Source: Bacteroidales bacterium
Lineage (GTDB): Bacteria; Bacteroidota; Bacteroidia; Bacteroidales; JAAYJT01
Length of the DNA stretch: 64,000 bases
Assembly (NCBI GenBank): GCA_014860575.1
Contig: JACZJK010000035.1
Location: 67,175 to 131,174 of the forward strand
Direction: 5' to 3'
In this document: positions 4,803-34,758 of the stretch, piece by piece
Numbering within the stretch: position 1 is the first letter of the stretch
Layout: the number at the start of each line of letters is the position of its first letter
Program-made: the position numbers and the translations under genes
The notes under the pieces: model-generated
What the model was told of the DNA's origin: nothing
Database searches by the model: none
What the model saw: only the letters and a program-made list of their open reading frames with translations

Positions 4803-7679
4803 ATGCTGACCAGGAAAAGGGCACATAGTTTAAGGATAAACACTCTCAACCTTGGGTTGCTTATTCCTTTTCTGGTAATTCACAGCCTTTTTTATTCTCA
4901 AAGCCCTTATCACATAACCAATTATAAAAAATCTGATTATGGCGCTGCCAATCAGAATTGGGATATTGACCTTGATGCCAACGGCAACGTTTTTATTGCC
5001 AATCATAAAGGCTTGCTCAGTCTTTCAGGTTCGCATATTTCCCTGAACGAACTTCCAGGCAAAACTATTATCCGCTCGGTAGCATCCATCAATAACAGGA
5101 TTTATACTGGTTCTTTCGAGGAATTTGGTTATTGGGAAAATGATGAGAACGGTCAGTTGCATTACTATTCGTTAGTTCCGTTGCTTACTGGTGATTCGTT
5201 GCTGAATGATGAGATTTGGAAAATTGTAAATGTGGGAGACCAAATCTATTTCCAGAGTTTTGGGAAATTGCTTTGTTACGAAAACCATCGTGTCAGCTCC
5301 ATAACAATTCCGGGTTCCATGATGTTCTTGATCAAATGCAACGAAAGACTTTTTGCCCAGCAAATTGATGGTGGACTTTACGAAATCATAGACAAACAGC
5401 TAATTTTTATTGAAGGAAGCCAGATATTCAGCGAAACGGAAATTAAGGCGATATTGCCATTGGAGAACGGCAGGTTTATAATAGGAACAAGTTCCCGTGG
5501 GCTCATACTTTTTGACGGCCTGGATTTTCAGGAGTGGGAGATTCCGGTTTCAGAGCAACTTAAAGCCTTTAAGATCAACAACGGGATCAGGATTGGCGAC
5601 CGGCTGATTTTTGGAACAATCTTGAATGGCGTTTTTATTCTCAGCCTCGATGGCGAACTCGTTTATCATATCAACACAGCAACATCACTTCAAAATAATA
5701 CTGTGCTGGCAGTTCATGGAGACGCTGACAACAATCTTTGGGTAGGGCTTGATAAAGGCTTTGATTATATTGCATTCAATACCCCCCTTGTAACTTACAT
5801 CGAATCAGCGGAAAGTTTTGGAACCGTTTATGCTGCTTGTCTTTTTAAGAACACACTTTACGTTGGAACCAACCAGGGAATTTATTATTTCAGTATGTAT
5901 GCTGATGGGTTGCTATATAACAAAAAGTTTCTCAACGGATCACAGGGACAGGTTTGGTTCATCAATATAATTGATGGGGCTCTCTACTGTGGGCTAAATG
6001 ATGGCACATACCTGATAAAGGACAATGAGCTGACTCCTGTGAGCAACGTCAGCGGAGGTTACAATCTAAAGCATGCCACATTGCATGATGAGCAATTCAT
6101 GATTCAGAGTACATATAGCGACCTAGTGGTTTATAGTAAACAAAATGTAACCTGGATGCAAAGCCATACTATGGCTGGATTTGGAGCTCCGGCGCGCTTT
6201 CTTGAAATGGATCATACCGGAAACATTTGGCTGGGGCATACCATAGCAGGCTTGTATTTGGTTCAGCCGAACGCTGGATTAGATACAGCTATGCTTGTAC
6301 TCAAACCAGGCATCGAACATGGCATCCATGATAATTGGAACCATATTTACAAAGTTGACAACAGAATTATTGTACCAACCGGCCAAGCCTTGCTGCAATG
6401 GGATGCCATTCAAAACAAAATGGTTCCATACCATGAACTTGCAATGCAGCTTGAAGGATTTGAAGCATCGCATACAATCCTTTCGGCAGGGCCAGGTAAA
6501 TACTGGTTCATAAAAGAAAACGAAGTCGGTTTTTTCGAGATCCGGTTTGGTAAGGCCGAACTGTTGTATCGCTTGCTTCCGCAGATGTACAGCCTGAGCA
6601 TGGTGGAGGATTATGAAAACATCGTAGCGCTCAATGACAGCCTGCAACTTATTTGCCTTGAGAATGGTTTTTCTATTCTGAACCTTCAGCGTTTGAACCG
6701 GCTACCTGACTTAAACGCACCACCGCTGATCAGCGAGGTCGTTTTCTGGAAAACCTCAGAAAATAAGATACGGTACAAACCTGACACCGACTCGAAAAAG
6801 CAGTTTAAACATAGTCATAATAACCTGCAGTTTATCTTTTCAGCGCCCGGCCCAGTTGGCAAAAAGAAGTACTTCCAGTATAAACTACATAGTTTTGATA
6901 TAGATTGGAGCGATTGGATCACTACATCGGAAATCACTTACAACCGCCTGCCTCCCGGGTCTTATACATTCATGTTACGAACACTTACAAACCAGGGAGT
7001 GATCACACAAAATGCACAGGTTTCAATAAAGATAAGGCCACCCTGGTACCTCTCGTATTTTTCATTTGCGTTTTATGTGCTGTTTTTTGTTGGCCTTGTT
7101 TGGTTAATAAGGCTCAATTACCTGCGGAGAAACTGGAAAAACCAGGAGGAGATACTTCGCAAGGAACAAGAGAAAATTCTGCTTCAAAAAGAACAGGCCG
7201 AAAGTGAGGTCATACGATTAAGTAACGAAAAGCTGCAATCTGAAATAATGTTGAAGAATTCGCAACTTGCCAACAGTACGATGGCGTTGTTAAGAAAGAA
7301 CGAATTGCTGGGCAATTTGCAGGAAGAGTTAAACCGGCAAAGGGAAGAACTCGGGCAAAGACTTCCCAGGAAATATTTCATGCGTATTAACCGATTGATT
7401 GAAAACAGTTTTAAGAGCGACCAGGAATGGGAAGTGTTTGAAAAACTTTTCGACCAGGCTCATGAGAATTTCTTCCAGCGACTCAAATCTGATTACCCTG
7501 GCCTTACCCCAAGCGATCTCAGGCTTTGTGCTTACCTGCGCCTGAATTTATCATCAAAGGAAATTGCCCCATTGCTTAATATCTCAGTAAGAGGGGTTGA
7601 GGAGCGGCGATACCGTTTACGTAAACGCCTTCATCTGGCATCAGAACAAAATCTTATAGAATTTATACTTGCTTACTGA
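4803..7679 (+). CDS. Transmembrane one-component regulator: propeller-repeat sensor + Y_Y_Y domain + TM + coiled coil + LuxR/GerE HTH
   Basis: N-terminal hydrophobic anchor, then ~650 aa of propeller-like repeats. A Y_Y_Y-type segment (YFQYKLHSFDIDWSDW..YNRLPPGSYTF) is followed by the TM helix FSFAFYVLFFVGLVWLI and a heptad-rich stretch. The C-terminal HTH reads LTPSDLRLCAYLRLNLSSKEIAPLLNISVRGVEERRYRLRKRL. I see no histidine-kinase H-box, ATPase or receiver motifs. Confidence 0.8.
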   Translation: MLTRKRAHSLRINTLNLGLLIPFLVIHSLFYSQSPYHITNYKKSDYGAANQNWDIDLDANGNVFIANHKGLLSLSGSHISLNELPGKTIIRSVASINNRIYTGSFEEFGYWENDENGQLHYYSLVPLLTGDSLLNDEIWKIVNVGDQIYFQSFGKLLCYENHRVSSITIPGSMMFLIKCNERLFAQQIDGGLYEIIDKQLIFIEGSQIFSETEIKAILPLENGRFIIGTSSRGLILFDGLDFQEWEIPVSEQLKAFKINNGIRIGDRLIFGTILNGVFILSLDGELVYHINTATSLQNNTVLAVHGDADNNLWVGLDKGFDYIAFNTPLVTYIESAESFGTVYAACLFKNTLYVGTNQGIYYFSMYADGLLYNKKFLNGSQGQVWFINIIDGALYCGLNDGTYLIKDNELTPVSNVSGGYNLKHATLHDEQFMIQSTYSDLVVYSKQNVTWMQSHTMAGFGAPARFLEMDHTGNIWLGHTIAGLYLVQPNAGLDTAMLVLKPGIEHGIHDNWNHIYKVDNRIIVPTGQALLQWDAIQNKMVPYHELAMQLEGFEASHTILSAGPGKYWFIKENEVGFFEIRFGKAELLYRLLPQMYSLSMVEDYENIVALNDSLQLICLENGFSILNLQRLNRLPDLNAPPLISEVVFWKTSENKIRYKPDTDSKKQFKHSHNNLQFIFSAPGPVGKKKYFQYKLHSFDIDWSDWITTSEITYNRLPPGSYTFMLRTLTNQGVITQNAQVSIKIRPPWYLSYFSFAFYVLFFVGLVWLIRLNYLRRNWKNQEEILRKEQEKILLQKEQAESEVIRLSNEKLQSEIMLKNSQLANSTMALLRKNELLGNLQEELNRQREELGQRLPRKYFMRINRLIENSFKSDQEWEVFEKLFDQAHENFFQRLKSDYPGLTPSDLRLCAYLRLNLSSKEIAPLLNISVRGVEERRYRLRKRLHLASEQNLIEFILAY

Positions 7680-7681
7680 TC

Positions 7682-7728
7682 TTCGAATCCTCTCATCTGC
7701 CGAAAGTCAACTCAGATTCGAATTTTTT
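7682..7728 (+). terminator. Possible intrinsic terminator after the regulator gene
   Basis: TTCGAATC (7682-7689) pairs perfectly with GATTCGAA (7715-7722) and is followed by TTTTTT (7723-7728). The 25-nt loop is large, so confidence is modest. Confidence 0.4.
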
Positions 7729-7904
7729 CCTCTAAGTAGTTCTATTTATCCTATTGTCATTTCCACATTAGAAATTTAACAACGTGCATGTTATAGGCAT
7801 TATTTGAGTATTGATGTGGTAATGATGAGGTGTATTTTACTGTTCGTTTTCCAATGATGTATACTAGATGATTGCCATTTCTTGACTTTAACTTTAATTA
7901 AGTG

Positions 7905-7912
7905 TAACTTTG
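7905..7912 (+). promoter_or_regulatory. Candidate -7 promoter box (TAACTTTG) upstream of the SusC-like gene
   Basis: Matches TAnnTTTG inside a 310-nt AT-rich intergenic region, 79 nt upstream of ATG 7991. Confidence 0.4.
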
Positions 7913-7990: not shown

Positions 7991-10900
7991 ATGCAGAATA
8001 AATACATACTTAAATTCTTCTCCCGATGCACAGTATTAGTGTTCATCCTTTTATTAGGGATGCAGTCGTTCAGCCAGCGTATTGTGAGCGGAACCGTTAC
8101 AGCTTCTGATACCGGAGAAACTTTGCCGGGCGTAAATGTAATTGTTAAAGGAACTTCCATTGGAACATCAACGGATATCAACGGTTCATTTCAGCTCGAA
8201 GTTATGCCTGGCGAGCAGGTACTGGTTTTTTCATTCATTGGCTACATTGATCAGGAAGTAGTTGTTGGCAACCAGCAGAATATAAATGTGGTACTTGAAA
8301 TCAGTAGCACCCAACTCGAGGAATTTGTTGTGATCGGTTATGGAACGCTGCGCAAAAGCGATTTAACGGGTGCGGTTAGTTCATTGAAGGCGGAAGACAT
8401 CCGGAAAATAACGGCGATTCACCCGGAAAAAGCCCTTCAGGGTAAAGTAACTGGTGTACAGGTAACAACTACTTCCGGAGCGCCCGGAGCAGGCGCTGCG
8501 GTTCGAATCAGGGGTGTGGGCACTTTTAACAATTCCGCCCCGATTTTTGTGGTGGATGGAATGATCCTCGATGATATTTCTTTTTTGAATTCCGGCGATA
8601 TCGAATCAATGGAGGTTCTTAAAGATGCCTCGGCAACCGCCATTTATGGTTCGCGGGGAGCAAATGGTGTTATTCTGATCCAAACCAAGAAAGGTTCTGT
8701 TGATCAGGAAAAACCTTCTTTCAGTTTCTCCAGTGAGTATGGAATTCAAAGACTTGCAAAAAAAATTGAACTGCTCAGCGGCCGGGAGTTTGCAATCATA
8801 AGCAATGAAATCAGGCCAGGTTCGTACAATAATGTGGATATGGTTCCCAATACTGATTGGCAGGATCTGATTTTTCAAACAGCGCCGGTTCAGAACCATC
8901 AGCTTTCTATAACGGGAGCTACGAACATCTCTCAGTATTATTTTGGAATTGGATTGTTTCAACAGGATGGCATTATTCCAAAATCGAACTACCAGCGCAT
9001 TACGCTTAAACTCAATAATACCTACAACCTGTCGAAATATTTCAGGTTGGGGAACAACATTACTGTAGCTCCTTATGATCAACGCAATGCCCCCAATGCA
9101 ACTTATGCAGTTTACCGGGCCCAGCCTTTACTTGAGCCTTATTACAGCGACGGAAGTTTTGGGGTTGTGTACAATGTCGGGAACCCATTGGCCGATCTTG
9201 AGTATTCTAATAATTACAACAGTGGGGTTCGCGGTGTTGGCAATCTTTATGCTGAAGCAAACCCGATTGATGGGATCACACTAAAATCAAGTTTTGGCAT
9301 TGACGCTACATTTAGTAAATCAAAAAGCTTTACACCGGCATATACGGTATATAATCCTGACGGGACTGCCTCCCAACAGTTCAATGAATTCAGCGATCTC
9401 TTCAAAGGGACCGGTGAAAATAGTAGTTGGTTGTGGGAGAACACGGTTTCATACGATAAGCGTATCAGCAAGCATAACATCAATGCAGTTGCCGGTTATA
9501 CAATGCAGAAGACCCGCTCAGAATCTTATGGGCTCTCAGGGCAGAACTTAATTCGTGATAACCCTGATTTCTGGTACATCGCACCTCAATACATCATGGA
9601 TGAAGCTAACAATATCAATATGCTGCAAAGCATCTCTAATAATGTTGATCTAAACCAGAATTACTCAATGATCTCTTACCTTTTCCGGGCTAATTATAGT
9701 TATGATAACCGGTTCATTGGTACCGTAACATTTCGCCGTGATGGTTCTTCCAAGTTCAGCCAGGAAAACCGTTATTCAAACTTTCCTTCTTTTGCCTTGG
9801 GCTGGAATATATCAAATGAGCAATTCATGCAATCATTTGGCCTCATTTCAAACCTGAAACTACGGGCAAGCTGGGGAAAGATCGGTAACGAAAAGATACA
9901 ATATTTCGATCGGTATGCCAGGGTTGAATCCGGCCTTTTAGTTATTTTGTCCGATCCCGATGCCGCTTATCCTGCTGCCAGCTACTTTAGCAGCGGCAAC
10001 CCCGATCTGGTATGGGAAACTACAACCCAAACCGATATTGGATTGGAAGTTGGTATGCTCAACAACCGTTTAACCGGTGAATTTGACTACTACCACCGTA
10101 TAACTGACGACATTCTGATCTTACTCTCAAATCCCGGCCATGTGGGCAATGGGCAGGGTGTAAAGGTGCGTTACAATGCTGCGTCGGCATTGAACCGTGG
10201 TGTTGAGATGAATATACGCTGGCGTGAAAAAGTGGGCGACTTCACTTATAGTGTTGGTGTTCTGGGAACCAGCATTCATAATGAAGTACTCTCAATTGGA
10301 GGTGCAAGCGGAGTAGATTCTGTTTTAATTGGCGGCGGGCTGGCTAATGGACAGCAAGTTACTTTAAGCCGTGTTGGCCTGCCAATCGGAGCATTCTATG
10401 GGTATCAGACCGATGGAATTTTTCAGGACCAGGCCGAGCTGAATGCTTACCCGCACATGTCGCTTGCCGGAGTAGGTGATCTTCGTTTTGTGGATGTAAA
10501 CAACGATGGCCAAATCAATGGTTTGGACAGGACTTATATTGGATCACCAATTCCGAAATATATCTATGGCTTCAATTTCGAAATCCAATACAAAACCATT
10601 GACTTCTCAGTTGATATTCATGGACAAAGCGGGAATGAGATATTCAATGGCAAAGATGTAGTGCGACCCGACCCTTATAACTTTGAGAAAACCGTCTGGG
10701 ACCGCTGGACTGGACCGGGTACAAGTACAACTGAACCACAGCCTTCATTTGGCGGTTACAATTACACGCCTTCTGATCGCTTTATACAGGATGGCTCCTT
10801 TGTTCGCCTGCGAAATATCCAGCTTGGATATACATTGCCTGAATCCCTGACCAACAGGGTCGCAATGCAGCAGGTCAGAATTTATGTAAAAGGCACTAAT

Positions 10901-11032
10901 ATTTATACACAGTCTAAATACACCGGATATACACCTGAAATAGGTGGTCACGATGTGTTGTCGAACGGGATTGACACTGGAGTTTACCCGATTTCTGCCG
11001 TGTATTCTGTTGGTATTAATGTTACATTTTAA
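7991..11032 (+). CDS. SusC/RagA-family TonB-dependent outer-membrane transporter
   Basis: Signal peptide. Carboxypeptidase-regulatory-like domain (VSGTVTASDTGETLPGVNVIVKGTSIGTSTDINGSF) and plug region (VVIGYGTLRKSDLTGAVS). Long barrel ending ..GINVTF. A SusD-like gene follows 11 nt later. Confidence 0.95.
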   Translation: MQNKYILKFFSRCTVLVFILLLGMQSFSQRIVSGTVTASDTGETLPGVNVIVKGTSIGTSTDINGSFQLEVMPGEQVLVFSFIGYIDQEVVVGNQQNINVVLEISSTQLEEFVVIGYGTLRKSDLTGAVSSLKAEDIRKITAIHPEKALQGKVTGVQVTTTSGAPGAGAAVRIRGVGTFNNSAPIFVVDGMILDDISFLNSGDIESMEVLKDASATAIYGSRGANGVILIQTKKGSVDQEKPSFSFSSEYGIQRLAKKIELLSGREFAIISNEIRPGSYNNVDMVPNTDWQDLIFQTAPVQNHQLSITGATNISQYYFGIGLFQQDGIIPKSNYQRITLKLNNTYNLSKYFRLGNNITVAPYDQRNAPNATYAVYRAQPLLEPYYSDGSFGVVYNVGNPLADLEYSNNYNSGVRGVGNLYAEANPIDGITLKSSFGIDATFSKSKSFTPAYTVYNPDGTASQQFNEFSDLFKGTGENSSWLWENTVSYDKRISKHNINAVAGYTMQKTRSESYGLSGQNLIRDNPDFWYIAPQYIMDEANNINMLQSISNNVDLNQNYSMISYLFRANYSYDNRFIGTVTFRRDGSSKFSQENRYSNFPSFALGWNISNEQFMQSFGLISNLKLRASWGKIGNEKIQYFDRYARVESGLLVILSDPDAAYPAASYFSSGNPDLVWETTTQTDIGLEVGMLNNRLTGEFDYYHRITDDILILLSNPGHVGNGQGVKVRYNAASALNRGVEMNIRWREKVGDFTYSVGVLGTSIHNEVLSIGGASGVDSVLIGGGLANGQQVTLSRVGLPIGAFYGYQTDGIFQDQAELNAYPHMSLAGVGDLRFVDVNNDGQINGLDRTYIGSPIPKYIYGFNFEIQYKTIDFSVDIHGQSGNEIFNGKDVVRPDPYNFEKTVWDRWTGPGTSTTEPQPSFGGYNYTPSDRFIQDGSFVRLRNIQLGYTLPESLTNRVAMQQVRIYVKGTNIYTQSKYTGYTPEIGGHDVLSNGIDTGVYPISAVYSVGINVTF

Positions 11033-11043
11033 ACCCCGCGATC

Positions 11044-12519
11044 ATGAAAAAAATAGGATACATACTCGTTGCACTTAGCTTATCAGTCCTCGTGGGTTGT
11101 GAGGATTTTCTTGACATCAATCCGCAGGGAGAACTGACCCAGGAAGCATTTCCGATAAATCAGGCCGATGCGCTGCTAGCTACCAATGCAGCTTATTCAA
11201 CACTTCGTAGTTGGAATTATCATTCAGGAGGTTTTCCGATCCTCGATATTATGTCGGATGATACACATAAAGGAAGTAACCCAAACGATGGTTTGAACAC
11301 CGTGGGGCCTTATGATAATTTCACTCACACTCCTACACAGGACGGCCTCGACCGCTGGTGGGCCTCATTATACCAGGGCATCAAACGCGCTAACGTAGTG
11401 GTTGAAAAGGTGCCTGAGCTAGAAATGGATAACAATTTAAAGAACCGCTATATTGGCGAGGCCAGGTTTTTGCGCGGTTTGTATTATTTCGATCTTGTAA
11501 GGGCTTGGAGTGGCGTACCACTGGTAACTACTACTGTAGTGCCTCTCCAGCTTCCGCGTGCAAGCGTTCAGGAAGTATATGATCTTGTAGAGCAGGATCT
11601 TTTATTTGCTGTGAGCAACTTACCCGAAAAGAGCGGTTACAGCGCCAATGATTTGGGCCGTGCTTCAAAAGGGGCAGCCAGGGCATTGCTGGCCAGGTTC
11701 TATCTTTTTAAAGGCGATTTTGTGAACGCTGAAAAATATGCACTTGAGGTAATTCAATCAAATGAATATGACCTTGAACCGAACTTTGAAGACGCCAATG
11801 GCAAAAATGGCGAGCATGGTGTTGAGTCTGTTTTTGAGATAGGCGCTATGGAAACCGAAGGTGCAGTTGGAAATCAGTATGCCAATACACAAGGCGTTCG
11901 TGGAACACCGAACCGTGGATGGGGTTTTAACCGTCCTTCGCTCAATCTGCGCAATGCATTTGAAGAGGATGATCCGCGTTTGAAACTCACAATCATTGAT
12001 CTTGGAGACGAAATTGATGGTATTTTGATACTGGGCGATGGTACAACTCCTGATGAAACCTTTGATGAGCAGGGAAATTTGGTTGAAGTAGAATGTTACA
12101 ACCGCAAAGTGTGGATTCCGGGAACTTCAACCAATACCCAATTTGGCCATAACCGACGTTTGATCAGATTTTCTGATGTACTATTAATGGCCGCCGAAGC
12201 GCTGAACGAGAATGGCAAACCAGGCGAAGCATTGTTACATCTTAACGAGGTTCGTAATAGAGCGCGGCACGGCAACGGTGAAATTTTGCCTGATATCACA
12301 ACAACCAATAAAGATGAACTTCGCGATCTGATCCTTTTCGAACGCAGGGTAGAACTGGCTATGGAAGGACACCGATTCTGGGATCTTGTAAGAACCGGAA
12401 AAGCACCCCAGTTGTTGGGCCCTCTTGGATACCAGCAAGGCAAACATGAACTACTTCCAATTCCGCAAAATGAGATTGACATTTCGCAGGGATCATTATC
12501 ACAGAATACGAACTGGTAA
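11044..12519 (+). CDS. SusD/RagB-family nutrient-binding outer-membrane lipoprotein
   Basis: Lipobox LVGC followed by EDFLD, which is typical of the SusD N-terminus. The size (491 aa) and the position directly after SusC fit. Confidence 0.9.
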   Translation: MKKIGYILVALSLSVLVGCEDFLDINPQGELTQEAFPINQADALLATNAAYSTLRSWNYHSGGFPILDIMSDDTHKGSNPNDGLNTVGPYDNFTHTPTQDGLDRWWASLYQGIKRANVVVEKVPELEMDNNLKNRYIGEARFLRGLYYFDLVRAWSGVPLVTTTVVPLQLPRASVQEVYDLVEQDLLFAVSNLPEKSGYSANDLGRASKGAARALLARFYLFKGDFVNAEKYALEVIQSNEYDLEPNFEDANGKNGEHGVESVFEIGAMETEGAVGNQYANTQGVRGTPNRGWGFNRPSLNLRNAFEEDDPRLKLTIIDLGDEIDGILILGDGTTPDETFDEQGNLVEVECYNRKVWIPGTSTNTQFGHNRRLIRFSDVLLMAAEALNENGKPGEALLHLNEVRNRARHGNGEILPDITTTNKDELRDLILFERRVELAMEGHRFWDLVRTGKAPQLLGPLGYQQGKHELLPIPQNEIDISQGSLSQNTNW

Positions 12520-12574: not shown

Positions 12575-13852
12575 ATGAAAAAATTTACTCTTCTTTTAGT
12601 TGCGATGCTGGCAGTGGCCGGCATATCACGTGCTCAAATGGTCGAAGACTTTGAGCATATTAATTTAAATATGATGCTTGGTGGAGCTGATGACAATAGT
12701 ACCATGACGATTGTTCCAAATCCGGATCCAAGTGGTATAAACGTCAGTTCACATGTCGTGAAATTTGATCGTAGCCAGCATGGTGTGCCCTGGGGTGGAT
12801 TCTGGTCATCCTTGCCCGAACCACTTGACCTGACTGTTAATAAGTATGTGCATGTGCGTGTATGGAAGCCACGGATCAGCCCACTGAGGTTTAAAATTGA
12901 AGGAGGCCCCGGCGCAAATACTGAAGTTGCCAGTATGAACCCCCAAACTCTCACTGAAGAATGGGAAGATATCGTTTTTGATTTTTCAGGCGTTACCGGC
13001 GAATGGAATGTAGTAGTCTTTATGCCCGATTTCGAAGATCCTCTGACATTAGAGGATGACATTGTGATCTATTTTGACTACATCATGGTAAATAACGACC
13101 CAACTCCCGGCAGCGCTGCTGCATATGTTGTTGAAGATTTTGATCACATCCAATTGAACCTTATGCTTGGTGGAGCCGATGACAACAGCAGTATGACGGT
13201 TGTTGGTAATCCAGATCCAACTGGTATTAACGAAAGCGGACACGTTGTGAAATATGAACGCAGTCAGCACGGCGTTCCATGGGGAGGTTTCTGGTCTGCG
13301 CTGCCAGCACCTCTTGACCTGACTGATAATAAGTTTGTTTATGTAAAAGTATGGAAACCACGTATCAGCCCTCTTAGATTTAAGGTTGAAGGTGGACCAA
13401 GTGCCAACCTGGAAATTGGCAGCATGTATCCTCAAACCCTTACAGGGGAATGGGAAGAGATTGTTTTCGATTTTTCTGAAAAAACTGGCAGCTGGAACGT
13501 AATTGCTTTTATGCCCGACTTTGAAGATCCACTCACCCTGACTGATGATATTGTTATTTATTTTGACGACATCAGGGTTGGGGGAGATCCTTTATTTACT
13601 TATGAGCCAGACAAGGCAAATCAACTGCAAGTGTATCCAAACCCTGCAAGTGATTTTATAACAATTAGAAATTCAGAAAAAATACAAACTGTTGAGATTT
13701 ACGATCTGGCTGGCAGACTTATGTATTCTGCCAACACGCAGACACTTGAATCTCAGGTGGATGTTTCTGATTTGAATCAGGGTATCTACATTCTTCGAGT
13801 TACTGCCAATAACACTCCGCTCAATACTAAAATAAATATTATGCGTTTTTAA
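12575..13852 (+). CDS. Secreted non-catalytic protein: two tandem CBM-like (jelly-roll) units + T9SS C-terminal sorting domain
   Basis: Signal peptide (..AGISRAQ). Two 151-aa units are about 77% identical (117/151 by hand alignment). The C-terminal T9SS-type tail reads VYPNPASDFITI ... GIYILRV. No catalytic motif recognised. Confidence 0.8.
   Translation: MKKFTLLLVAMLAVAGISRAQMVEDFEHINLNMMLGGADDNSTMTIVPNPDPSGINVSSHVVKFDRSQHGVPWGGFWSSLPEPLDLTVNKYVHVRVWKPRISPLRFKIEGGPGANTEVASMNPQTLTEEWEDIVFDFSGVTGEWNVVVFMPDFEDPLTLEDDIVIYFDYIMVNNDPTPGSAAAYVVEDFDHIQLNLMLGGADDNSSMTVVGNPDPTGINESGHVVKYERSQHGVPWGGFWSALPAPLDLTDNKFVYVKVWKPRISPLRFKVEGGPSANLEIGSMYPQTLTGEWEEIVFDFSEKTGSWNVIAFMPDFEDPLTLTDDIVIYFDDIRVGGDPLFTYEPDKANQLQVYPNPASDFITIRNSEKIQTVEIYDLAGRLMYSANTQTLESQVDVSDLNQGIYILRVTANNTPLNTKINIMRF
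12638..13579 (+). repeat. Intragenic tandem duplication (2 x 453 nt units, 489-nt period)
   Basis: Unit 1 is 12638-13090 (MVEDFEHINLNMMLGGADDN...IVIYFDYIMV). Unit 2 is 13127-13579 (VVEDFDHIQLNLMLGGADDN...IVIYFDDIRV). They are joined by a 12-aa linker, NNDPTPGSAAAY. Confidence 0.95.
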
Positions 13853-24100: not shown

Positions 24101-24117
24101 ATTGAAAATCTTTGAAA

Positions 24118-26547
24118 ATGAATTTTAGTATTAAGGAAAATAACTTTTACCTGGATAATAAAAAGGTCTTTCTCAATTCAGGTGAGATCCATTATTTCAG
24201 GGTTAAGCGTGAGTTATGGAACACTCACCTTGAAGCAGCAAAAGAAGCCGGGCTCGCAGCGGTAAGTTCTTACGTGCCCTGGGCCTGGCATGAGCCTGAT
24301 GAGGGCGTATTTGATTTTGATGGAACCACATTGCCTGAACGCGATCTCAAAGGCTGGCTGAAATTATGCAAGGATTTTGGTCTGACCTGCATTTTGAAAC
24401 CCGGCCCTTATATACTTGCCGAATTCCGCGGCGCCGGTCTTCCATATTGGTTCCTGAACAAATATGGAGAAGCGTTGAGAATGCATAACAGCAGGGGAGA
24501 AGCAGTTCCGAGCGATGGTGTAAGCCTGTTCCACCCTGGATATATCGAAAGTGTTACCCATTGGTATAATCATATTATGCCTTTTATTCGGGAGCATGAA
24601 ATCTCAAATGGCGGGCCGGTGATCATGATGCAGATTTGCAATGAAATTGGTTTGTTCTCATGGCTCGCACATCAGGCTGATTACAGTGAGGATATCAGGC
24701 AGCGGTTTATAAAATACCTTGAAAGCAGGTTTGCCAACATTGAAAAAGTGAATTCATTGTGGGGAACCAATTTCAATGATTTTGAGCATATTGCTTTACC
24801 ACCCGATGGCAAACTTCCGTACGAATCAAAAGGAGATCGCAGCCGTGATTACGAATGGCATTCCTTCTGGCGCATGTATTACGCTGAATACCTCAAAATG
24901 CTTGCGCAGATGGCCAGGGTACATGGCGTTACGGTTCCTTTTTATCACAACCTGCCGGGCTGGATTTACGGGCATGGATATGAGTTTCCGGTGAATATTA
25001 CAATGTATGAGGAATTGTACAGGGAAAAGAGCGATATCATTTTCGGGGTTGATCATATTCCTGAGTTCATGTCGCACTGCAACATGCACGACGACCGGAT
25101 TATTAATGATATAACCATTGCAATGCAGGGAAACAAACCATTGTTTGCTGCGGAATTTCAGAGCGGTTCACGCGAATACCATGTGGTTACGAACCCACGT
25201 GAAATGGAACTTTTTTACAAAGCCAGCATTGCCAATGGACTGACCGGCTGGAATTACTACATGTTCTCACAGGGGCGCAACCCGGAGAAAATGGGCTACT
25301 CAGGCGATACATTTTATTGGTTCACACCATTGACTGCCGAAGGGGAGCGTACAAGCGCGTTTTCATTGGTTCAGCGAATGAGCAAACTCATCAAAACAAA
25401 TGAAAGCCTCATTCTCGAAGCAAAACGTCAATCCGAAATATGTGTGTTGTTCTACCCTCCCTATTATGCTACAGAACTGGAAAGGCCTGAAGAAGGAGCA
25501 TCCGGACTAAAGTTTTCTTATTCTGCCATTCGCAGGCCTGCATATTTTGATGGTTTGCTGAAAGCACTGCAGGTTCTGAATGTAGATTATGACATGCTTG
25601 ACCTGACGAAAACTACTGCTGCTGAGTTAAATAAATACAAACAGGTTTGGGCATTTTGCACCGATGAAATGAATTCAGGGGATCAGCAAACCATGATTAA
25701 CTATGTTGCCGCAGGTGGAAATTTGGTAATCTTCCCGAACCTGCCCAACCGGGAAATGTCACAAAAACCCTGCGCAATTATCCGGGATGCATTGTCAGTT
25801 AAACCCTTAGGAGTCGAAACCATTGATTCGCCTCTTATTGATGTTTTTAGTTTAAGCGATATCAAATGTGCGAACCCGCAAATCGTTTATCCCGAAGAAA
25901 CATTTACGTCTGATGAAGTAATTGCCCGAACACTGAAGGGCAGTGTTTGCGGTTTTTCAAAATCGCATAAAAAAGGCAGGATAATTCATCTGGGAACATG
26001 GATTGGGTTCGACACCGAAGGACACAAACCGATTTACGAAGCTTTACTGGAAACATCGGGAGCAAGACTTCGGAAAGCATCGTCAGACAACGATTTCATA
26101 ACGGTAAGGCAACGATTTACCGATGAAAATTCCGCGATGCTGTTTGTCGGAAATTATTATAATGAAGAGCAAACCGGAACAGTAACCTATACGCATCCAG
26201 GCAGCCATGAAACTATAACGATACCGTTTTCAGGCAAAGCAACTTTGTGGCCGGCTTTATATGCTGTTCTGACCCCAATATGCATGCAAATGGGAGAAGG
26301 ACTGACGATACTTCACAGCACATCCGGTATCCTGGCGATTGAAACAAAGGAATCTATAACTGAAATCACAGTTTTCGGAGATCGCGACCTGGCAGGGGAA
26401 ATCGTTTTTGAAGGCGAGAATTTGGCTCAGATCAATTCGATTACCATTGACGATGAACCGGTTAAAATGCTAAGCAGTGGGAAGCGGATTGTAGTTAATT
26501 ATCCGCACAAGCACAGAGAAGAATTTGTCATCCGTCTTAATTTTTAA
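24118..26547 (+). CDS. Cytoplasmic GH35-like clan GH-A enzyme (beta-galactosidase fold; true specificity uncertain)
   Basis: No signal peptide. Motifs are GEIHYFRV..ELW, SSYVPWAWHEPDEGVFDFDG, ILKPGPYILAEFRGAGLPYWF and GGPVIMMQICNEIG (NE acid/base position). The track start is TTG 24112; I prefer ATG 24118. Confidence 0.7.
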   Translation: MNFSIKENNFYLDNKKVFLNSGEIHYFRVKRELWNTHLEAAKEAGLAAVSSYVPWAWHEPDEGVFDFDGTTLPERDLKGWLKLCKDFGLTCILKPGPYILAEFRGAGLPYWFLNKYGEALRMHNSRGEAVPSDGVSLFHPGYIESVTHWYNHIMPFIREHEISNGGPVIMMQICNEIGLFSWLAHQADYSEDIRQRFIKYLESRFANIEKVNSLWGTNFNDFEHIALPPDGKLPYESKGDRSRDYEWHSFWRMYYAEYLKMLAQMARVHGVTVPFYHNLPGWIYGHGYEFPVNITMYEELYREKSDIIFGVDHIPEFMSHCNMHDDRIINDITIAMQGNKPLFAAEFQSGSREYHVVTNPREMELFYKASIANGLTGWNYYMFSQGRNPEKMGYSGDTFYWFTPLTAEGERTSAFSLVQRMSKLIKTNESLILEAKRQSEICVLFYPPYYATELERPEEGASGLKFSYSAIRRPAYFDGLLKALQVLNVDYDMLDLTKTTAAELNKYKQVWAFCTDEMNSGDQQTMINYVAAGGNLVIFPNLPNREMSQKPCAIIRDALSVKPLGVETIDSPLIDVFSLSDIKCANPQIVYPEETFTSDEVIARTLKGSVCGFSKSHKKGRIIHLGTWIGFDTEGHKPIYEALLETSGARLRKASSDNDFITVRQRFTDENSAMLFVGNYYNEEQTGTVTYTHPGSHETITIPFSGKATLWPALYAVLTPICMQMGEGLTILHSTSGILAIETKESITEITVFGDRDLAGEIVFEGENLAQINSITIDDEPVKMLSSGKRIVVNYPHKHREEFVIRLNF

Positions 26548-30060: not shown

Positions 30061-32355
30061 ATGAAGATAAAATTAATATTGACAGCGCTGCTTTTAGCTC
30101 TCATGATCTTATCCTTTTCTCAGAAGAAGGAACCTGTGGCCGGTTCCGAAATGGATGCATTGATAAATGAACTTATGCAGCGCATGACCATGGAAGAAAA
30201 GATCGGGCAACTCAATCTGCTGCCTGGTTATGAAGATATAGTCACTGGAGAGGCGACTTCGTCAGAAATAGGAAAAAAAATACTGGAGGGCAAAGTAGGC
30301 GCTGTATTCAATCTGCGAACCTTAGGAAAAATACGTGAGATGCAACGCATTGCGGTTGAAGAAAGCAGAAATAAAATCCCGCTTATGTTTGGCCTGGATG
30401 TCATTCATGGTTACCGTACGGTTTTCCCTATTCCACTGGGACTGGCTGCAAGTTTTGACATGGATCTGATTGAGCGAAGCGCAAGTATAGCGGCTAGTGA
30501 GGCAACTGCCGACGGCTTATGCTGGAATTTTTCTCCAATGGTTGATCTTACCCGTGATCCCCGCTGGGGTCGCATCGCCGAAGGTTTTGGTGAAGACCCT
30601 TACCTCGGTTCCCGCTTCGCAGAAGCATTCGTAAGAGGTTATCAGGGGGATGATCTTTCGAAAAATAACACAATGATGGCTTGTGTAAAGCATATGGCTT
30701 TGTATGGCGCTGCTGAGAGTGGCCTTGACTACAACACCACCGATATGAGCCGCTTGCGTATGTTCAATGAGTATTTTCCACCTTATCTGGCTGGAATCAG
30801 GGCTGGCGCCGGAAGCGTAATGACCTCCTTCAATGAGGTTGATGGAATTCCTGCATCAGGAAATCGTTGGCTGCTGACTGAAGTTTTGCGCGATAATTGG
30901 GGTTTTGACGGTTTCGTGGTAACCGATTATACTGCCGTTAATGAAATGATGATGCATGGCGTCGGCGATCTTCAAACTGTTTCGGCAATGGCTTTAAAAG
31001 CAGGAGTGGATCTGGATATGGTTGGTGAAGGCTTCTTAACAACACTCGGAAAATCATTGGAAGAAAAAAGGATTACGCCTTATCAGATTGATCAGGCATG
31101 CCGCAGAATACTGGAAGCCAAATATAAACTCGGATTATTCCACGATCCATACAGGTATTGTTACGAAGAGCGCTCAGAAACTGAAATTTTCACCGAAGAA
31201 AATAATCGCATTGCCAGGGAACTGGCTGCACAAACCTTTGTTTTGCTCAAAAATGAAGGACAAATATTGCCGCTTAAACCCCAGGGAAAAATAGCACTGA
31301 TAGGGCCACTGGCTGATAGTCGCATGAATATGGCAGGCACGTGGAGTGTGGCCGTTGATCATAATCAATCAATAACAGTTCTGGAAGGATTCAGAGATGC
31401 GGTGGGCAACATGGCAAATGTTTATTATGCCAAAGGTGCCAATATTACCGACGACCCAAAACTTGACCAAAGGTCAGCAGTGCGGCGAATGCCAACGATT
31501 GATACAATAAGAACTCCTGAACAATTAAGGGATGAAGCTGTAGCGCTTGCAGCAGAATGCGACGTTGTTTTAGCGGTGATGGGTGAATCAGCTGAAATGA
31601 GCGGCGAAAGCAGCAGCCGTACTGATTTGCAGCTTCCCGGCAGCCAGCGCGAACTGCTCAAAGCTTTAATGAATACGGGTAAACCTTTAGTATTGGTTGT
31701 GTTCGCAGGCCGCCCATTAATTCTGGATTGGGAAAAGGAAATTATTCCTGCGATCCTGAATGTATGGTTTGGAGGAACCCAAAGCGGAAATGCTATTGCA
31801 GATGTTGTTTTTGGCAAAGTCAATCCCTCTGCCAAACTACCTGTAACTTTTCCACGAAGTGTAGGACAAATCCCAATATATTACAATCATAAAAACACCG
31901 GACGCCCTCTGGATGATGATGAGTGGTTTAAAAAGTTCCGGACCAATTATCTTGATATTCCCAATGAACCTTTATGGCCTTTTGGTTATGGCCTGAGCTA
32001 TACAAATTTTGATTACGGGAAAGTTGTACTCGACAAAACAGAGTTTAGCGAAGGACAAGAGCTGAAGGCGAGCATTAATGTCAGAAATAGCGGTAGTTAC
32101 GATGGTGCCGAAGTGGTGCAGCTTTATATACGAGATATGGTTGGTAGCATCACCCGTCCGGTGAAAGAACTGAAAGGATTTCAAAAAGTGCACCTGAAAG
32201 CAGGCGAACAAAAAACAATAACTTTTACTGTTCAGACAGAAGACCTGGCTTTCTATCACGATGACATGAGTTTTTTTGCTGAAAAAGGAGAATTCATTCT
32301 AATGATTGGCAGTAATTCAAGCGATACGCAAGCAATAGGCTTTTCTTATAAATGA
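30061..32355 (+). CDS. Periplasmic GH3 beta-glucosidase
   Basis: Signal peptide. GH3 motifs are KIGQLNLL, RDPRWGRIAEGFGEDPYL, KHMALYGA and GFDGFVVTDY (nucleophile Asp). There is a C-terminal fibronectin-like domain. Confidence 0.9.
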   Translation: MKIKLILTALLLALMILSFSQKKEPVAGSEMDALINELMQRMTMEEKIGQLNLLPGYEDIVTGEATSSEIGKKILEGKVGAVFNLRTLGKIREMQRIAVEESRNKIPLMFGLDVIHGYRTVFPIPLGLAASFDMDLIERSASIAASEATADGLCWNFSPMVDLTRDPRWGRIAEGFGEDPYLGSRFAEAFVRGYQGDDLSKNNTMMACVKHMALYGAAESGLDYNTTDMSRLRMFNEYFPPYLAGIRAGAGSVMTSFNEVDGIPASGNRWLLTEVLRDNWGFDGFVVTDYTAVNEMMMHGVGDLQTVSAMALKAGVDLDMVGEGFLTTLGKSLEEKRITPYQIDQACRRILEAKYKLGLFHDPYRYCYEERSETEIFTEENNRIARELAAQTFVLLKNEGQILPLKPQGKIALIGPLADSRMNMAGTWSVAVDHNQSITVLEGFRDAVGNMANVYYAKGANITDDPKLDQRSAVRRMPTIDTIRTPEQLRDEAVALAAECDVVLAVMGESAEMSGESSSRTDLQLPGSQRELLKALMNTGKPLVLVVFAGRPLILDWEKEIIPAILNVWFGGTQSGNAIADVVFGKVNPSAKLPVTFPRSVGQIPIYYNHKNTGRPLDDDEWFKKFRTNYLDIPNEPLWPFGYGLSYTNFDYGKVVLDKTEFSEGQELKASINVRNSGSYDGAEVVQLYIRDMVGSITRPVKELKGFQKVHLKAGEQKTITFTVQTEDLAFYHDDMSFFAEKGEFILMIGSNSSDTQAIGFSYK

Positions 32356-32377
32356 TTAGTATTTACGGCAGGTTTTT

Positions 32378-32385
32378 TACATTTG
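32378..32385 (+). promoter_or_regulatory. Candidate -7 promoter box (TACATTTG) upstream of the sugar-porter gene
   Basis: TAnnTTTG match in the 120-nt gap after the GH3 gene, 91 nt upstream of ATG 32476. Confidence 0.35.
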
Positions 32386-32475
32386 TCTTTTCAATACACT
32401 TGATGACCCGTTTTTCCAGCTTCCATTAGCTAACAGGATTTAAGTATTCGAAATTGAACATTAATACTGAATTAC

Positions 32476-33912
32476 ATGAATCAGAAAGAACCAGTCAGTT
32501 TTCACCCACCTGCGATTAATCATGCCCGGGTGATCGGCCTTTCAGTTGTTGCAGCCTTGGGTGGCTTTCTTTTCGGTTTCGACAGCGGGGTAATCAATGG
32601 TACAGTAGGTGCGCTGCAACAAGCCTTTAATTCCGATGCAGTTGGCACAGGCTTTAATATTGCTTCTATGCTATTGGGTTGTGCAGCAGGCGCTTTTTTT
32701 GCCGGAACACTGGCCGATAAAATTGGCCGTAAATACACCCTGCTGATAGCTGCTGTTGCTTTCATTGTCAGCGCCTGGGGTTCAGGGATTGCAGATGGTT
32801 CAACAGAATTTGTTATTTTTCGTGTGCTTGGAGGACTTGCCGTGGGCGCTGCCAGTATTATTGCTCCAGCCTATATTGGAGAAATAGCTCCCTCACATAT
32901 TCGGGGCAGATTGATTTCGCTTCAGCAACTTGCCATTGTGCTAGGTTTGTTCATGGCTTTTTTCTCCAATTACAATATTGCCAATGCTGCAGGTGGCGCA
33001 TCCGGAGCGTTTTGGTGGGGATTCAATGCCTGGCAGTGGATGTTCTGGATTGAAATTATTCCTGCATCACTTTTCTTCATCTTTTTATTCTTCATACCCG
33101 AATCACCCCGCTACCTTGTTGCTGCAGGTAAAGATGAAAAAGCCAGGAAAATAATTGCCAGCCTCACTGATGAGGAAACAGCAAGGATGCAGGTTGAAGA
33201 AATAAAGCTCACAGTTTTTCGCGAACGCAAGCCAAGACTTTCAGATATTATCAATCCGGCCAGTGGAAAGATCCATCCCATTGTGTGGATAGGAATTGCC
33301 CTTGCCGCTTTGCAGCAGTTTACCGGTATCAATGTTGTGTTTTATTATGGTTCAGTATTATGGCAAGCCGCTGGCTTTACTGAAGCCGACGCCTTGCTGA
33401 CCAATGTAATCAGTGGTTCGGTAAACGTGTTTTTCACTTTTGTGGCGATTGCTTTGGTTGACAAAGTTGGCCGCAAACCATTGTTGCTTGTAGGTGCGTT
33501 AGGACAAGCCGTGACCCTCGGAATTTTAGGTTTGATTTTCGCTTTCGGCGCAAAGGATGCTTCAGGCGGACTTGAATTAACCGGCAAAAGTGGTGTGATT
33601 GCGCTGGTGGTGGCTAACCTTTATATTGCTTTCTTCGCAACCACATGGGGGCCGGTAATGTGGGTGATGCTCGGCGAAATGTTCCCTAATAAATTCAGGG
33701 GAGCAGCACTTGCTGTTGCTGGTTTGGCCCAATGGGGCTCCAACTTCCTGATTACAATTTCTTTCCCGATCCTTCTTACATCCATCGGGCTTGGAATTTC
33801 GTATGGCATTTACGCCGCTTTTGGCTTGCTGGCATTTTGGGTCGTAAAGCGTTATGTTACGGAAACCAAGGGCCGAACGCTTGAGGAAATATCTATGGAT
33901 GAAGCCGGTTAA
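32476..33912 (+). CDS. MFS sugar porter (monosaccharide:H+ symporter)
   Basis: Sugar-porter signatures are GFLFGFDSGVING, GRKYTLL, PESPRYL and TETKGRTLEEI. About 12 hydrophobic segments. Confidence 0.9.
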   Translation: MNQKEPVSFHPPAINHARVIGLSVVAALGGFLFGFDSGVINGTVGALQQAFNSDAVGTGFNIASMLLGCAAGAFFAGTLADKIGRKYTLLIAAVAFIVSAWGSGIADGSTEFVIFRVLGGLAVGAASIIAPAYIGEIAPSHIRGRLISLQQLAIVLGLFMAFFSNYNIANAAGGASGAFWWGFNAWQWMFWIEIIPASLFFIFLFFIPESPRYLVAAGKDEKARKIIASLTDEETARMQVEEIKLTVFRERKPRLSDIINPASGKIHPIVWIGIALAALQQFTGINVVFYYGSVLWQAAGFTEADALLTNVISGSVNVFFTFVAIALVDKVGRKPLLLVGALGQAVTLGILGLIFAFGAKDASGGLELTGKSGVIALVVANLYIAFFATTWGPVMWVMLGEMFPNKFRGAALAVAGLAQWGSNFLITISFPILLTSIGLGISYGIYAAFGLLAFWVVKRYVTETKGRTLEEISMDEAG

Positions 33913-33948
33913 CTTTACAATTCAAAAACTTTAATCAACCTCAGAAAA

Positions 33949-34758
33949 ATGAAGACCTGGATTTCGATATTATTGAGTAGCTCAATAATAATTGTCCTTT
34001 TAACTGTACTATTCAATTATCCGGTTAAGGCTCAAATTGCCAGAAATTTTGAACCGAGGGTCTATCACAACAATATCGACAGCTTGCCATACCGGATTAT
34101 GTTTCCTGAAAATTTTGACCCGTTACTGAAATACCCCCTGATCCTGTTTTTGCATGGTGCAGGTGAACGCGGAAACAACAATGAAAGCCAGTTAATACAC
34201 GGTGGCAGGTTTTTCGCTTCCGATACCAACAGGCAAAATTATCCCTCAATTGTAGTTTTTCCGCAATGTCCTGCTGATAGTTATTGGGCCAATGTCAATT
34301 TTTCTTTCGATCCTGAAGGCAAGCGTTCTTTTAGTTTCGATCCGTCTGGCGAACCAACGTTGCCGTTGCAACTCGTTATGCAGTTGCTTGACTCTATGCT
34401 GAACCAGAGCTGGGTAGATAAAGATCGGTTTTATCTGGGCGGACTTTCCATGGGCGGAATGGGCACCTTCGAGTTGCTGTACCGCAAACCCGAAGTTTTT
34501 GCAGCAGCCTTTCCAATTTGTGGCGGAGGAAACCCGGATCTGATCAACGAAAAAGTAAAATCAGTTGAAATATGGGCTTTCCACGGCCAGGATGATCCGG
34601 TAGTTCTGCCTGAACTTTCCGTAAAAATGATAGCGGCAGTCGAAAAAGCCGGTAGCAAAACCAAACTGACCCTTTATCCCGATGTCGGACATAACGCCTG
34701 GGATCATGTTTTCCTGGAACCGGAATTACTTCCCTGGCTTTTCTCGGTTCGCAGGTAG
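33949..34758 (+). CDS. Secreted alpha/beta-hydrolase esterase (carboxylesterase / predicted-peptidase family)
   Basis: N-terminal hydrophobic signal or anchor. LILFLHGAGERGNNN, nucleophile elbow GLSMGGMG, later FHGQDDPVV and GHNAW, consistent with a Ser-Asp-His triad. Confidence 0.75.
   Translation: MKTWISILLSSSIIIVLLTVLFNYPVKAQIARNFEPRVYHNNIDSLPYRIMFPENFDPLLKYPLILFLHGAGERGNNNESQLIHGGRFFASDTNRQNYPSIVVFPQCPADSYWANVNFSFDPEGKRSFSFDPSGEPTLPLQLVMQLLDSMLNQSWVDKDRFYLGGLSMGGMGTFELLYRKPEVFAAAFPICGGGNPDLINEKVKSVEIWAFHGQDDPVVLPELSVKMIAAVEKAGSKTKLTLYPDVGHNAWDHVFLEPELLPWLFSVRR

Follow-up and report, generated by a model that had tools for sequence, protein, structure and literature searches.

A conserved modular SusC/SusD-type locus of Bacteroidales predicted to serve beta-1,2-glucan use

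Proteobacteria, among them Brucella, Agrobacterium, Rhizobium and Xanthomonas, have beta-1,2-glucans as periplasmic and secreted glucans. These compounds matter for infection, symbiosis and osmoadaptation, and little is known about their consumers in nature and the ways of consumption. Cyclic beta-1,2-glucans of bacteria often carry succinyl groups or other substituents. Loci combining SusC/SusD with a glycoside hydrolase (GH) of family GH144 have already been named beta-1,2-glucan loci and are among the abundant types of polysaccharide utilization locus (PUL) (Lapebie et al., 2019; PMC6499787). For the GH144 cluster of Ignavibacterium album, a route from the outside through the periplasm to the cytoplasm was proposed, which comprises the outer membrane, the periplasm, a transporter and GH94 and GH35 enzymes (Kobayashi et al., 2022; PMC8861115). 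Here we describe a SusC/SusD-type PUL at positions 4803-34758 of a stretch of 64,000 nucleotides from a Bacteroidales bacterium (contig JACZJK010000035.1, positions 67,175-131,174), which as a whole is called the window below.

We put the probability at roughly 0.8 that this is one locus for the use of beta-1,2-glucan and sophoro-oligosaccharides which would work broadly as described below; the target glucan would be linear or cyclic and is probably acylated. A beta-1,2-glucan substrate had already been suggested by an earlier annotation made without database searches (the sequence-only reading), and the present analysis supports it on four grounds. Four enzyme types are strongly homologous to characterised beta-1,2-specific enzymes, published catalytic and subsite residues are kept in the 1,2-beta-oligoglucan phosphorylase homolog (SOGP), the GH35 protein and one of the two GH144 proteins, GH144b (PMC5309861, PMC8861115, PMC12102758), more than 100 independent loci share the gene order, and the sorting signals fit the proposed route.

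Enzymes of the locus and their predicted substrate

All 14 open reading frames (ORFs) of the locus are intact, lie on the plus strand and are separated by short intergenic gaps, as the sequence-only reading had it; the locus would start at 4767 if a TTG codon is counted. Families were assigned by Pfam, NCBIfam and a sequence search of solved structures, which reproduced the earlier family calls, two labels ("tandem CBM" and "GH15-like") only in part. With an adjacent susC/susD pair spaced by 11 nt and, on the same strand, six GH-type genes and a regulator gene, the locus is of the SusC/SusD PUL type. In the Pfam search no ORF of the locus matched GH16, GH17, GH30 or cellulase families, the absence of which had been noted before, and GH149 and GH158 were likewise not found; nor did Pfam reveal other GH, polysaccharide lyase (PL) or sulfatase genes in the locus.

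Both GH144 proteins were counted as family members with the PF10091 cut-off of 27 bits. In the solved-structure search GH144a matched CpSGL (5gzh) with an E-value of 4.8e-153 and GH144b matched XcSGL (8xul) with 1e-102. The SGL clan is defined by a general-acid Glu, a Phe near the nucleophilic water and a Tyr of subsite -3, represented in XcSGL by E239, F286 and Y367 (PMC12102758). E224, F269 and Y347 of GH144b align with these residues, the crystal chain of 8xul having Q at the Glu position. In GH144a the general-acid Glu is E439 within the motif GYNEAL and the Tyr is kept according to the alignment to GH144b, the alignment at the Phe being ambiguous. None of the characterised GH144 enzymes was active on beta-glucans of other kinds (Table 1 of PMC12102758). 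Based on homology and N-terminal sequence, GH144a is predicted to be a surface endo-beta-1,2-glucanase and GH144b a periplasmic beta-1,2-glucanase.

The 1114-amino-acid (aa) protein, which the sequence-only reading had described as GH94-like with a GDWND motif, indeed contains SOGP and GH94 domains, and GDWND is located at residues 757-761. The Pfam matches (SOGP_N, 1.9e-51; SOGP_2nd, 1.6e-56; GH94, 1.2e-13; SOGP_4th, 1.4e-10) give the four-domain monomer-type architecture including Ndom1, and the protein aligned end to end (residues 4-1103) with LpSOGP of Lachnoclostridium phytofermentans (5h3z, 8.6e-182). Using the HMMER alignment and the residue roles reported for LpSOGP (PMC5309861), we found the catalytic D761 (LpSOGP D760) within GGDWND and conservation of the subsite -1 residues R632, D633, W759 and E919 (R630, D631, W758, E917), of Y924 and H926 in the phosphate site (Y922, H924) and of the +1/+2 determinants R909, Y136, R918 and Q623 (R907, Y141, R916, Q621). 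N133 is also conserved, and Y1006-S1007-S1008 lie at the same +2 offset as Y1004-S1005-S1006 of LpSOGP, in a segment beyond the printed HMMER alignment; of these LpSOGP residues, Y1004 counts among the +1/+2 determinants and S1005 belongs to the phosphate site. G623 of LpSOGP is replaced by Ser. These matches predict a cytoplasmic 1,2-beta-oligoglucan phosphorylase, an enzyme that needs chains with a degree of polymerization (DP) of ≥ 3 (PMC5309861).

The GH35 protein matched the beta-1,2-glucosyltransferase IaSGT of I. album (7vkw) over 680 residues (2.3e-154); the sequence-only reading was correct in naming this I. album GH35 enzyme a beta-1,2-glucosyltransferase (PMC8861115). Its acid/base E178 and nucleophile E348 align with E176 and E343 of IaSGT, and E104, L102, R354, Y383 and Y402 correspond to IaSGT E102, L100, R349, Y378 and Y397, of which R349 and L100 are not conserved in many homologs (PMC8861115). 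G283, W284 and D314 equal IaSGT G278, W279 and D309, and L/F/L occupy the positions of V179, F180 and L183 in the hydrophobic aglycone pocket. In IaSGT, E102, L100, R349, Y378, G278, W279 and D309 serve to recognise glucose or sophorose. About 120 extra residues are present at the C-terminus compared to IaSGT. By these alignments the protein is predicted to be a beta-1,2-glucosyltransferase of the IaSGT type. Assignment as a beta-galactosidase was rejected, as the IaSGT-specific residues are kept, unlike in Bxy_22780 of Bacteroides xylanisolvens. The ORF starts with TTG at 24112, and an ATG follows two codons further on.

Two further enzymes are encoded at the downstream end. The GH3 protein matched BT_3567 (5xxl, 5.9e-291), a Bacteroides enzyme acting on sophoro-oligosaccharides, and 3u48 (E = 0) in the solved-structure search. 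The secreted alpha/beta-hydrolase has the nucleophile motif GLSMGG with S167 and is 45-49% identical to the terminal gene product of short GH144 loci described below, making it a conserved locus member, unlike the sugar porter encoded next to it. From sequence it is predicted to be an esterase removing acyl substituents from the glucan.

Acidic residues following the lipobox Cys are the lipoprotein export signal of Bacteroidetes and direct lipoproteins to the surface. In the translated N-termini, a lipobox with such residues is present in SusD (Cys19, then EDFLD), the LamG protein (Cys24, then KKDDD) and GH144a (Cys20, then KKDNGD), and the lipobox of GH144b has no acidic residues (C-NQPNQ). 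Type-I signal peptides were read for the type IX secretion system (T9SS) protein, the 1058-aa protein, GH3 and the esterase, and no signal for GH35 and SOGP. The sorting-signal part of the sequence-only reading thus stands.

Table 1. Features of the locus in the window
Feature	Position	Strand	Evidence
Putative membrane-spanning one-component regulator of the BguR type	4803..7679	+	Pfam, hydropathy
Putative promoter box TAACTTTG	7905..7912	+	match to Bacteroidetes -7 box TAnnTTTG, ~80 nt upstream of susC
SusC-like TonB-dependent transporter	7991..11032	+	CarbopepD_reg_2 4.3e-20, Plug 8.6e-18, TonB barrel 2.2e-15
SusD-like surface lipoprotein	11044..12519	+	SusD_RagB 1.3e-34, SusD-like_3 1.8e-27
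T9SS-secreted 425-aa protein, two tandem modules	12575..13852	+	Por_Secre_tail 1.8e-15
Big_5 + LamG surface lipoprotein	13894..15144	+	Laminin_G_3 2.3e-16, Big_5 2.6e-09
GH144a, surface lipoprotein, 2x Big_5 + GH144	15213..17198	+	PF10091 8e-75
GH144b, lipoprotein	17318..18703	+	PF10091 1.5e-73
1058-aa periplasmic protein, unclassified family	18807..21983	+	F5_F8_type_C 1.1e-15, AF2 model, Foldseek
GPH-family (MFS_2) cation symporter	22007..24100	+	MFS_2 9.7e-64, TIGR00792 7.1e-49
Cytoplasmic GH35, IaSGT (beta-1,2-glucosyltransferase) type	24112..26547	+	Glyco_hydro_35 1.7e-46
SOGP, homolog of 1,2-beta-oligoglucan phosphorylase, 1114 aa	26635..29979	+	SOGP_N, SOGP_2nd, GH94, SOGP_4th
GH3 beta-glucosidase, BT_3567 type, periplasmic	30061..32355	+	GH3 N, C, Fn3-like domains
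Sugar porter (MFS Sugar_tr)	32476..33912	+	Sugar_tr 2.8e-117
Secreted alpha/beta-hydrolase esterase	33949..34758	+	Peptidase_S9, Abhydrolase_2, DLH matches

Modular build, the 1058-aa protein and accessory genes

For the comparison of gene order we used 80 loci from genomes, which surround relatives of the 1058-aa protein, and 80 from metagenomes, which surround relatives of SOGP. In 70 of the 74 loci with enough sequence, the GH144b gene immediately precedes that of the 1058-aa protein, and GPH-GH35-SOGP follows directly in 47 of 53; this triad is kept in the metagenome loci, too. In 40 of 58 loci a SusC gene is found upstream at a distance of at most 10 kb. Altogether the cassette is kept in more than 100 loci of Bacteroidales and Ignavibacteria. 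With few exceptions the carriers are uncultured Bacteroidales (Tenuifilaceae, Lentimicrobiaceae and others) and Ignavibacteria, and even the best genome match shares no more than 72% identity with the window.

Via homologs of the T9SS protein we found three short GH144 loci (L161-L163) with the order regulator (50% identity to the window), GH144, SusC (70%), SusD (76%), T9SS protein (68%), LamG protein (65%), GH144a (59%), GH3 (45%) and esterase (49%). The presence of this set alone in the three loci indicates that the window locus is a short GH144 locus with an inserted cassette. Judged by sequence comparison, module A is thus the widespread short GH144 locus (regulator, SusC, SusD, T9SS protein, LamG protein, GH144a, GH3, esterase); module B (GH144b, 1058-aa protein, GPH symporter, GH35, SOGP) appears as an insertion between GH144a and GH3, and the sugar porter as an addition before the esterase in the window.

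The new element among the products of module B is the 1058-aa protein. According to sequence searches and an AlphaFold2 (AF2) model, it is composed of a carbohydrate-binding module (CBM) 11-like domain, a CBM32/discoidin domain, a beta-supersandwich, an (alpha/alpha)6 barrel and a C-terminal beta-sandwich. For residues 310-1058 the search of solved structures found no sequence relative, and the family profile search matched only the CBM32 and CBM11 parts of the protein; likeness of residues 310-1058 to the six-hairpin families GH78, GH95 and GH15 stayed below threshold (E around 0.01). An earlier full-length AF2 model based on 40 close homologs, which had a pLDDT of 68 in the catalytic half and gave uninformative Foldseek matches (TM-score 0.2), was replaced by a model of residues 310-1058 from an alignment of 86 more diverse sequences (pLDDT 91, pTM 0.92). 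With this model, the best Foldseek matches were GH94 phosphorylases (E 5e-19, TM-score 0.57), followed by the GH94 domain of cyclic glucan synthase (CGS), GH15 and GH116, all at 10-14% identity.

A profile-profile comparison of the 1058-aa family with our own SOGP alignment gave a weak in-register match of the barrel (probability 20%, P 0.0011), which placed the invariant segment S-W-I-R-D-G over A-W-G-T-R-D of SOGP. The phosphorylase motif GDWND has no counterpart in the 1058-aa protein, aligning to a gap/PESISHEG region. Membership in GH94 was rejected, since neither a sequence match nor a GDWND counterpart was found and only the fold, the best among the PDB matches, is alike. GH15 was also rejected: Glyco_hydro_15 matched with E ≥ 0.016 and in merely 8 of 40 family members, TIGR01577 scored 22.7 bits against a cut-off of 820.7, and no GH15 chain appeared in the solved-structure sequence search. 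The likeness to GH15 consists of the fold (1lf6, TM-score 0.54-0.60) and a W-x-R-D motif only. Hence, of the former label "discoidin + GH15-like", the discoidin part holds (1.1e-15), and the GH15-like part holds at the level of fold and motif, not by sequence profile. A hidden SGL-clan member in the C-terminal region was dismissed as well, as hhalign against the GH144a, GH144b and GH35 alignments gave probabilities below 8%.

The family has many invariant acidic residues and comprises at least 735 clusters (50% identity) related at E ≤ 1e-30. In some relatives (for example P0030), GH144b is fused in frame at the N-terminus, and one of these fusions (P0099) is located inside a SusCD locus. One relative (P0374) carries a C-terminal alpha/beta-hydrolase homologous to the window esterase (37% identity, E 3e-32), and others have GDSL acylhydrolase domains, N-terminal in P0253; P0235 is a further fused relative. 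Through such fusions the 1058-aa family is linked to GH144b and the esterase. From such sequence evidence we conclude that the protein is likely a periplasmic carbohydrate-active enzyme of an unclassified family with the same substrate as GH144b and the esterase, and a candidate for a new GH family. One conceivable role would be the opening or trimming of cyclic beta-1,2-glucans with acyl groups, on which GH144 enzymes may work poorly.

Among the surface proteins, SusC is 62-78% identical to the SusC proteins of syntenic loci. The LamG lipoprotein, kept after SusD in at least 19 loci, occupies the position typical of a surface glycan-binding protein. The T9SS protein is a type A cargo with the signal peptide MKKFTLLLVAMLAVAGISRAQ and a sorting tail at residues 353-420 (PF18962, 1.8e-15; TIGR04183, 1.7e-15). 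Its two modules of 155 aa share 77% identity and matched no Pfam family. More than 500 homologs (508) have the same architecture, with the sorting tail as sole Pfam domain, and in the three short GH144 loci examined (L161-L163) they directly follow SusD (10001-11269). The name "tandem CBM" used by the sequence-only reading is therefore right about the tandem modules and the T9SS tail, and a CBM function is unproven, the modules having no Pfam match. The protein is a candidate glycan-binding protein, and its modules are possibly a new CBM family. A variant of 533 aa (P0497) is encoded outside any GH144 locus.

The GPH symporter was assigned on the basis of MFS_2 (215.9 bits, cut-off 27) and TIGR00792 (166.6 bits, under the curated 231). 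Hydropathy revealed a charged helical insertion of about 200 aa between transmembrane helices (TM) 11 and 12 (residues ~430-636), because of which the MFS_2 profile match ends at TM11. The insertion has no Pfam match and is kept at full length in about 50 related loci. By analogy, the standard topology of the major facilitator superfamily (MFS) would place it in the periplasm. The sugar porter is a locus member by adjacency only and probably takes up glucose.

The regulator is predicted to have a signal/TM segment, a beta-propeller sensor, a Y_Y_Y domain, one TM, a coiled linker and a LuxR/GerE-like helix-turn-helix (HTH). Pfam detected Y_Y_Y (7.8e-09) and Reg_prop (1.9e-06) and found no HisKA, HATPase or REC domain. 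The HTH signal was weak (Sigma70_r4_2, E 0.003; C-termini of LuxR-type response regulators, E 0.0025-0.006). The longest ORF begins at TTG 4767, but translation more likely begins at ATG 4803, ahead of the hydrophobic N-terminal segment; in the form beginning there hydropathy gave this segment and a single TM at residues 748-774. The predicted architecture matches that described for BguR, and BguR-type regulators were reported beside GH144 loci (bioRxiv 10.64898/2026.01.10.698779). Its position varies among the loci: a Y_Y_Y-type homolog with 30-32% identity is located downstream of SOGP, and not upstream of SusC, in seven of them (L048, L049, L051, L052, L097, L140, L159).

The Bacteroides promoter -7 consensus is TAnnTTTG. 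A matching box, TAACTTTG, was read within the 311-bp spacer between the regulator gene and susC, and we infer only from its sequence that it could be a susC promoter element. A scan for sigma-70 consensus promoters and terminators around the regulator gave background level. Upstream of the locus (1804-3927), a zinc-ribbon/FHA protein is encoded beside a Ser/Thr protein kinase, and downstream (36118-39760) an SDR gene is followed by two tandem paralogous AMP-binding (acyl-CoA ligase-like) genes. All of these are apparently unrelated to the locus, which makes its boundaries sound.

Proposed route and alternative explanations

In the route that we propose, GH144a would cut the glucan at the cell surface, where SusD, the LamG protein and the T9SS protein would hold it, and SusC would import the fragments. 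In the periplasm, the esterase would strip off acyl groups, GH144b and the 1058-aa protein would shorten the chains, and GH3 would free some glucose to be taken up by the sugar porter. By analogy with BguR, the regulator might be activated by periplasmic oligosaccharides. The GPH symporter, predicted to import sophoro-oligosaccharides, would carry these across the inner membrane. SOGP would then phosphorolyse chains of DP ≥ 3 to glucose-1-phosphate and stop at sophorose, which GH35 would disproportionate to glucose and sophorotriose, the latter going back into SOGP.

In E. coli, maltose is handled by MalQ, a disproportionating transglycosylase, and MalP, a phosphorylase unable to use the shortest oligosaccharide. 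By analogy, GH35 and SOGP, whose genes are strictly adjacent, could clear sophorose as MalQ and MalP clear maltose, and with such a cycle no cytoplasmic beta-glucosidase would be needed. In keeping with this, IaSGT disproportionates Sop2-5 without hydrolysis (PMC8861115). That the 1058-aa protein founds a GH or transglycosylase family for beta-1,2-glucan, and GH35 and SOGP together form an undescribed MalQ/MalP-like cycle, is a combined proposal whose chances we place somewhat short of even.

Several points weigh against the route or parts of it. The literature search found no expression, growth or enzyme work on any SusCD-type GH144 locus. The 1058-aa protein has no known activity, and in six metagenome loci (L081, L082, L097, L110, L111, L140) GH144b leads straight into GPH-GH35-SOGP with no detectable homolog of it, so it seems dispensable in some lineages, and the core route would not depend on it. 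For the GPH symporter the substrate is a prediction only, and in the 160 related loci the sugar porter had no adjacent homolog except a single weak one. GH3 enzymes of the BT_3567 type also cleave laminaribiose, at rates comparable to sophorose (PMC12369401). Bxy_22780, the GH35 protein of a B. xylanisolvens GH144 locus, is a beta-1,2-galactosidase, phylogenetically far from SGT (PMC11739564). Finally, IaSGT has very high Km values for Sop2 and Sop3 (120-300 mM) and prefers aryl or alkyl glucoside acceptors (PMC8861115), which makes the MalQ-like role of GH35 speculative.

The last two of these observations could also be explained if the target were a complex or unknown glycan or glycoside merely containing beta-1,2-glucosyl links, such as a decorated heteropolysaccharide, sophorosides or aryl/alkyl glucosides, in which case pure beta-1,2-glucan would be no more than a model substrate. 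For the abundant GH144 loci, Lapebie et al. (PMC6499787) see the natural target in a polysaccharide about which little is known, and the esterase and the unassigned 1058-aa protein with its CBM32, a domain type often binding galactose, would suit such a substrate as well. However, all assignable enzymes are glucose- and beta-1,2-specific by homology, the +1/+2 residues of SOGP forming the Sop2 subsites are kept, the locus is devoid of other GH, PL and sulfatase genes, and the acyl groups on cyclic beta-1,2-glucans already account for the esterase. We therefore regard such a target as improbable. The laminarin-like features of the locus carry even less: BguR was characterised on a laminarin locus, BguR-type regulators and GH3 beta-glucosidases are typical of laminarin loci, and the activity of BT_3567-type GH3 enzymes on laminaribiose mentioned above would fit, but the BguR homologs of GH144 loci form a separate clade (bioRxiv 10.64898/2026.01.10.698779), beta-1,2 linkages are the only ones on which SOGP and SGT act, the characterised GH144 enzymes are inactive on other beta-glucans, and the GH families named above (GH16, GH17, GH30, GH149, GH158) are missing. 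A locus for laminarin or another beta-glucan is scarcely credible on this basis, and a laminarin or cellulose locus was rejected because no such enzyme families are present.

A different question is whether the 14 genes act together. In L161-L163, module A is found by itself, Ignavibacteria and some Bacteroidales loci have module B or portions of it and no SusCD, and SusC was not found within 10 kb upstream in every locus (40 of 58), as if an ordinary GH144 locus yielding glucose through GH3 stood side by side with an independent GH144b-to-SOGP cassette for another pool, for instance free sophoro-oligosaccharides that are imported or periplasmic glucans of the cell itself. Yet the cassette is nested within module A: GH144a and GH3 flank it, all share one strand, and the gaps are short. 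This nested order recurs in many species, no glucan synthase is encoded nearby, and both modules would act on the same linkage. Two separate units are thus very unlikely in our view, and a single beta-1,2-glucan locus remains the preferred explanation.

Comparison with described systems

If the locus works as proposed, many uncultured Bacteroidales from sediments and digesters would possess a complete route of capture, import, de-acylation and energy-saving phosphorolysis, contained in one conserved locus of modular build. The set GH144b, 1058-aa protein, GPH, GH35 and SOGP could serve as a marker in metagenome scans for the turnover of glucan from bacterial necromass, and characterising the 1058-aa family could add a new CAZy family. 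A full-text search of open-access papers and preprints found no paper combining beta-1,2-glucan with SusD and GH94/SOGP, none describing a PUL together with SOGP and none characterising the 1058-aa family. The novelty claimed by the sequence-only reading is overstated and holds in part only, as GH144 loci had been proposed as beta-1,2-glucan loci (PMC6499787) and the I. album route had been put forward, too (PMC8861115). New here are the two-module anatomy, the use of the conserved cassette as a marker for metagenomes, an enzyme-like family that is unclassified and has several fusion partners, the conserved 200-aa insertion of the symporter and the proposed transferase-phosphorylase cycle.

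Module A is of the type of the predicted GH144 PULs of Bacteroidota, which have SusC/SusD, GH144, GH3 and a membrane-spanning Y_Y_Y/HTH regulator (PMC6499787; bioRxiv 10.64898/2026.01.10.698779). To these the window adds the cassette for symport and cytoplasmic phosphorolysis and transglycosylation as well as the 1058-aa protein, and it has none of the sulfatases carried by marine GH144 PULs (PMC6499787). The I. album cluster (IALB_1177-1187; PMC8861115) shares with the window two GH144 proteins, a TonB-dependent transporter, GH94, the GH35 beta-1,2-glucosyltransferase and, according to our own synteny analysis, a homolog of the 1058-aa protein beside GH144b. It differs by an ABC transporter with a Sopn-binding protein in place of the GPH symporter and by a GH94 protein of the cyclic-glucan-synthase type instead of the LpSOGP type, and no SusD, LamG or T9SS surface proteins are described for it; the identity of the window GH35 to GH35 proteins of Ignavibacteria is no higher than about 37%.

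The SOGP operon of Listeria innocua and L. phytofermentans (Lin1839-1841; PMC5309861, PMC12369401) also encodes a cytoplasmic SOGP yielding glucose-1-phosphate from imported sophoro-oligosaccharides and a sophorose-preferring GH3. It belongs to Gram-positive bacteria, uses ABC import and lacks outer-membrane machinery, GH144 and a GH35 transferase. GH3 clears the sophorose there, whereas in the window GH3 is predicted to be periplasmic and the cytoplasm would hold GH35 instead. The mixed-linkage glucan loci of Prevotellaceae (PMC11418011) are similar in layout, with a surface endo-glucanase, SusCD, a periplasmic GH3, MFS uptake of a di- or oligosaccharide and a cytoplasmic GH94 phosphorylase. 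They are different in linkage (beta-1,3/1,4), in having a cellobiose phosphorylase and GH5_4 or GH16 as vanguard enzyme, and in having no transglycosylase partner. The MalQ/MalP pair, finally, is unlike the window in its alpha-1,4 chemistry and its families, GH77 and GT35. Current understanding of these systems is not overturned by the locus, which extends the published predictions.

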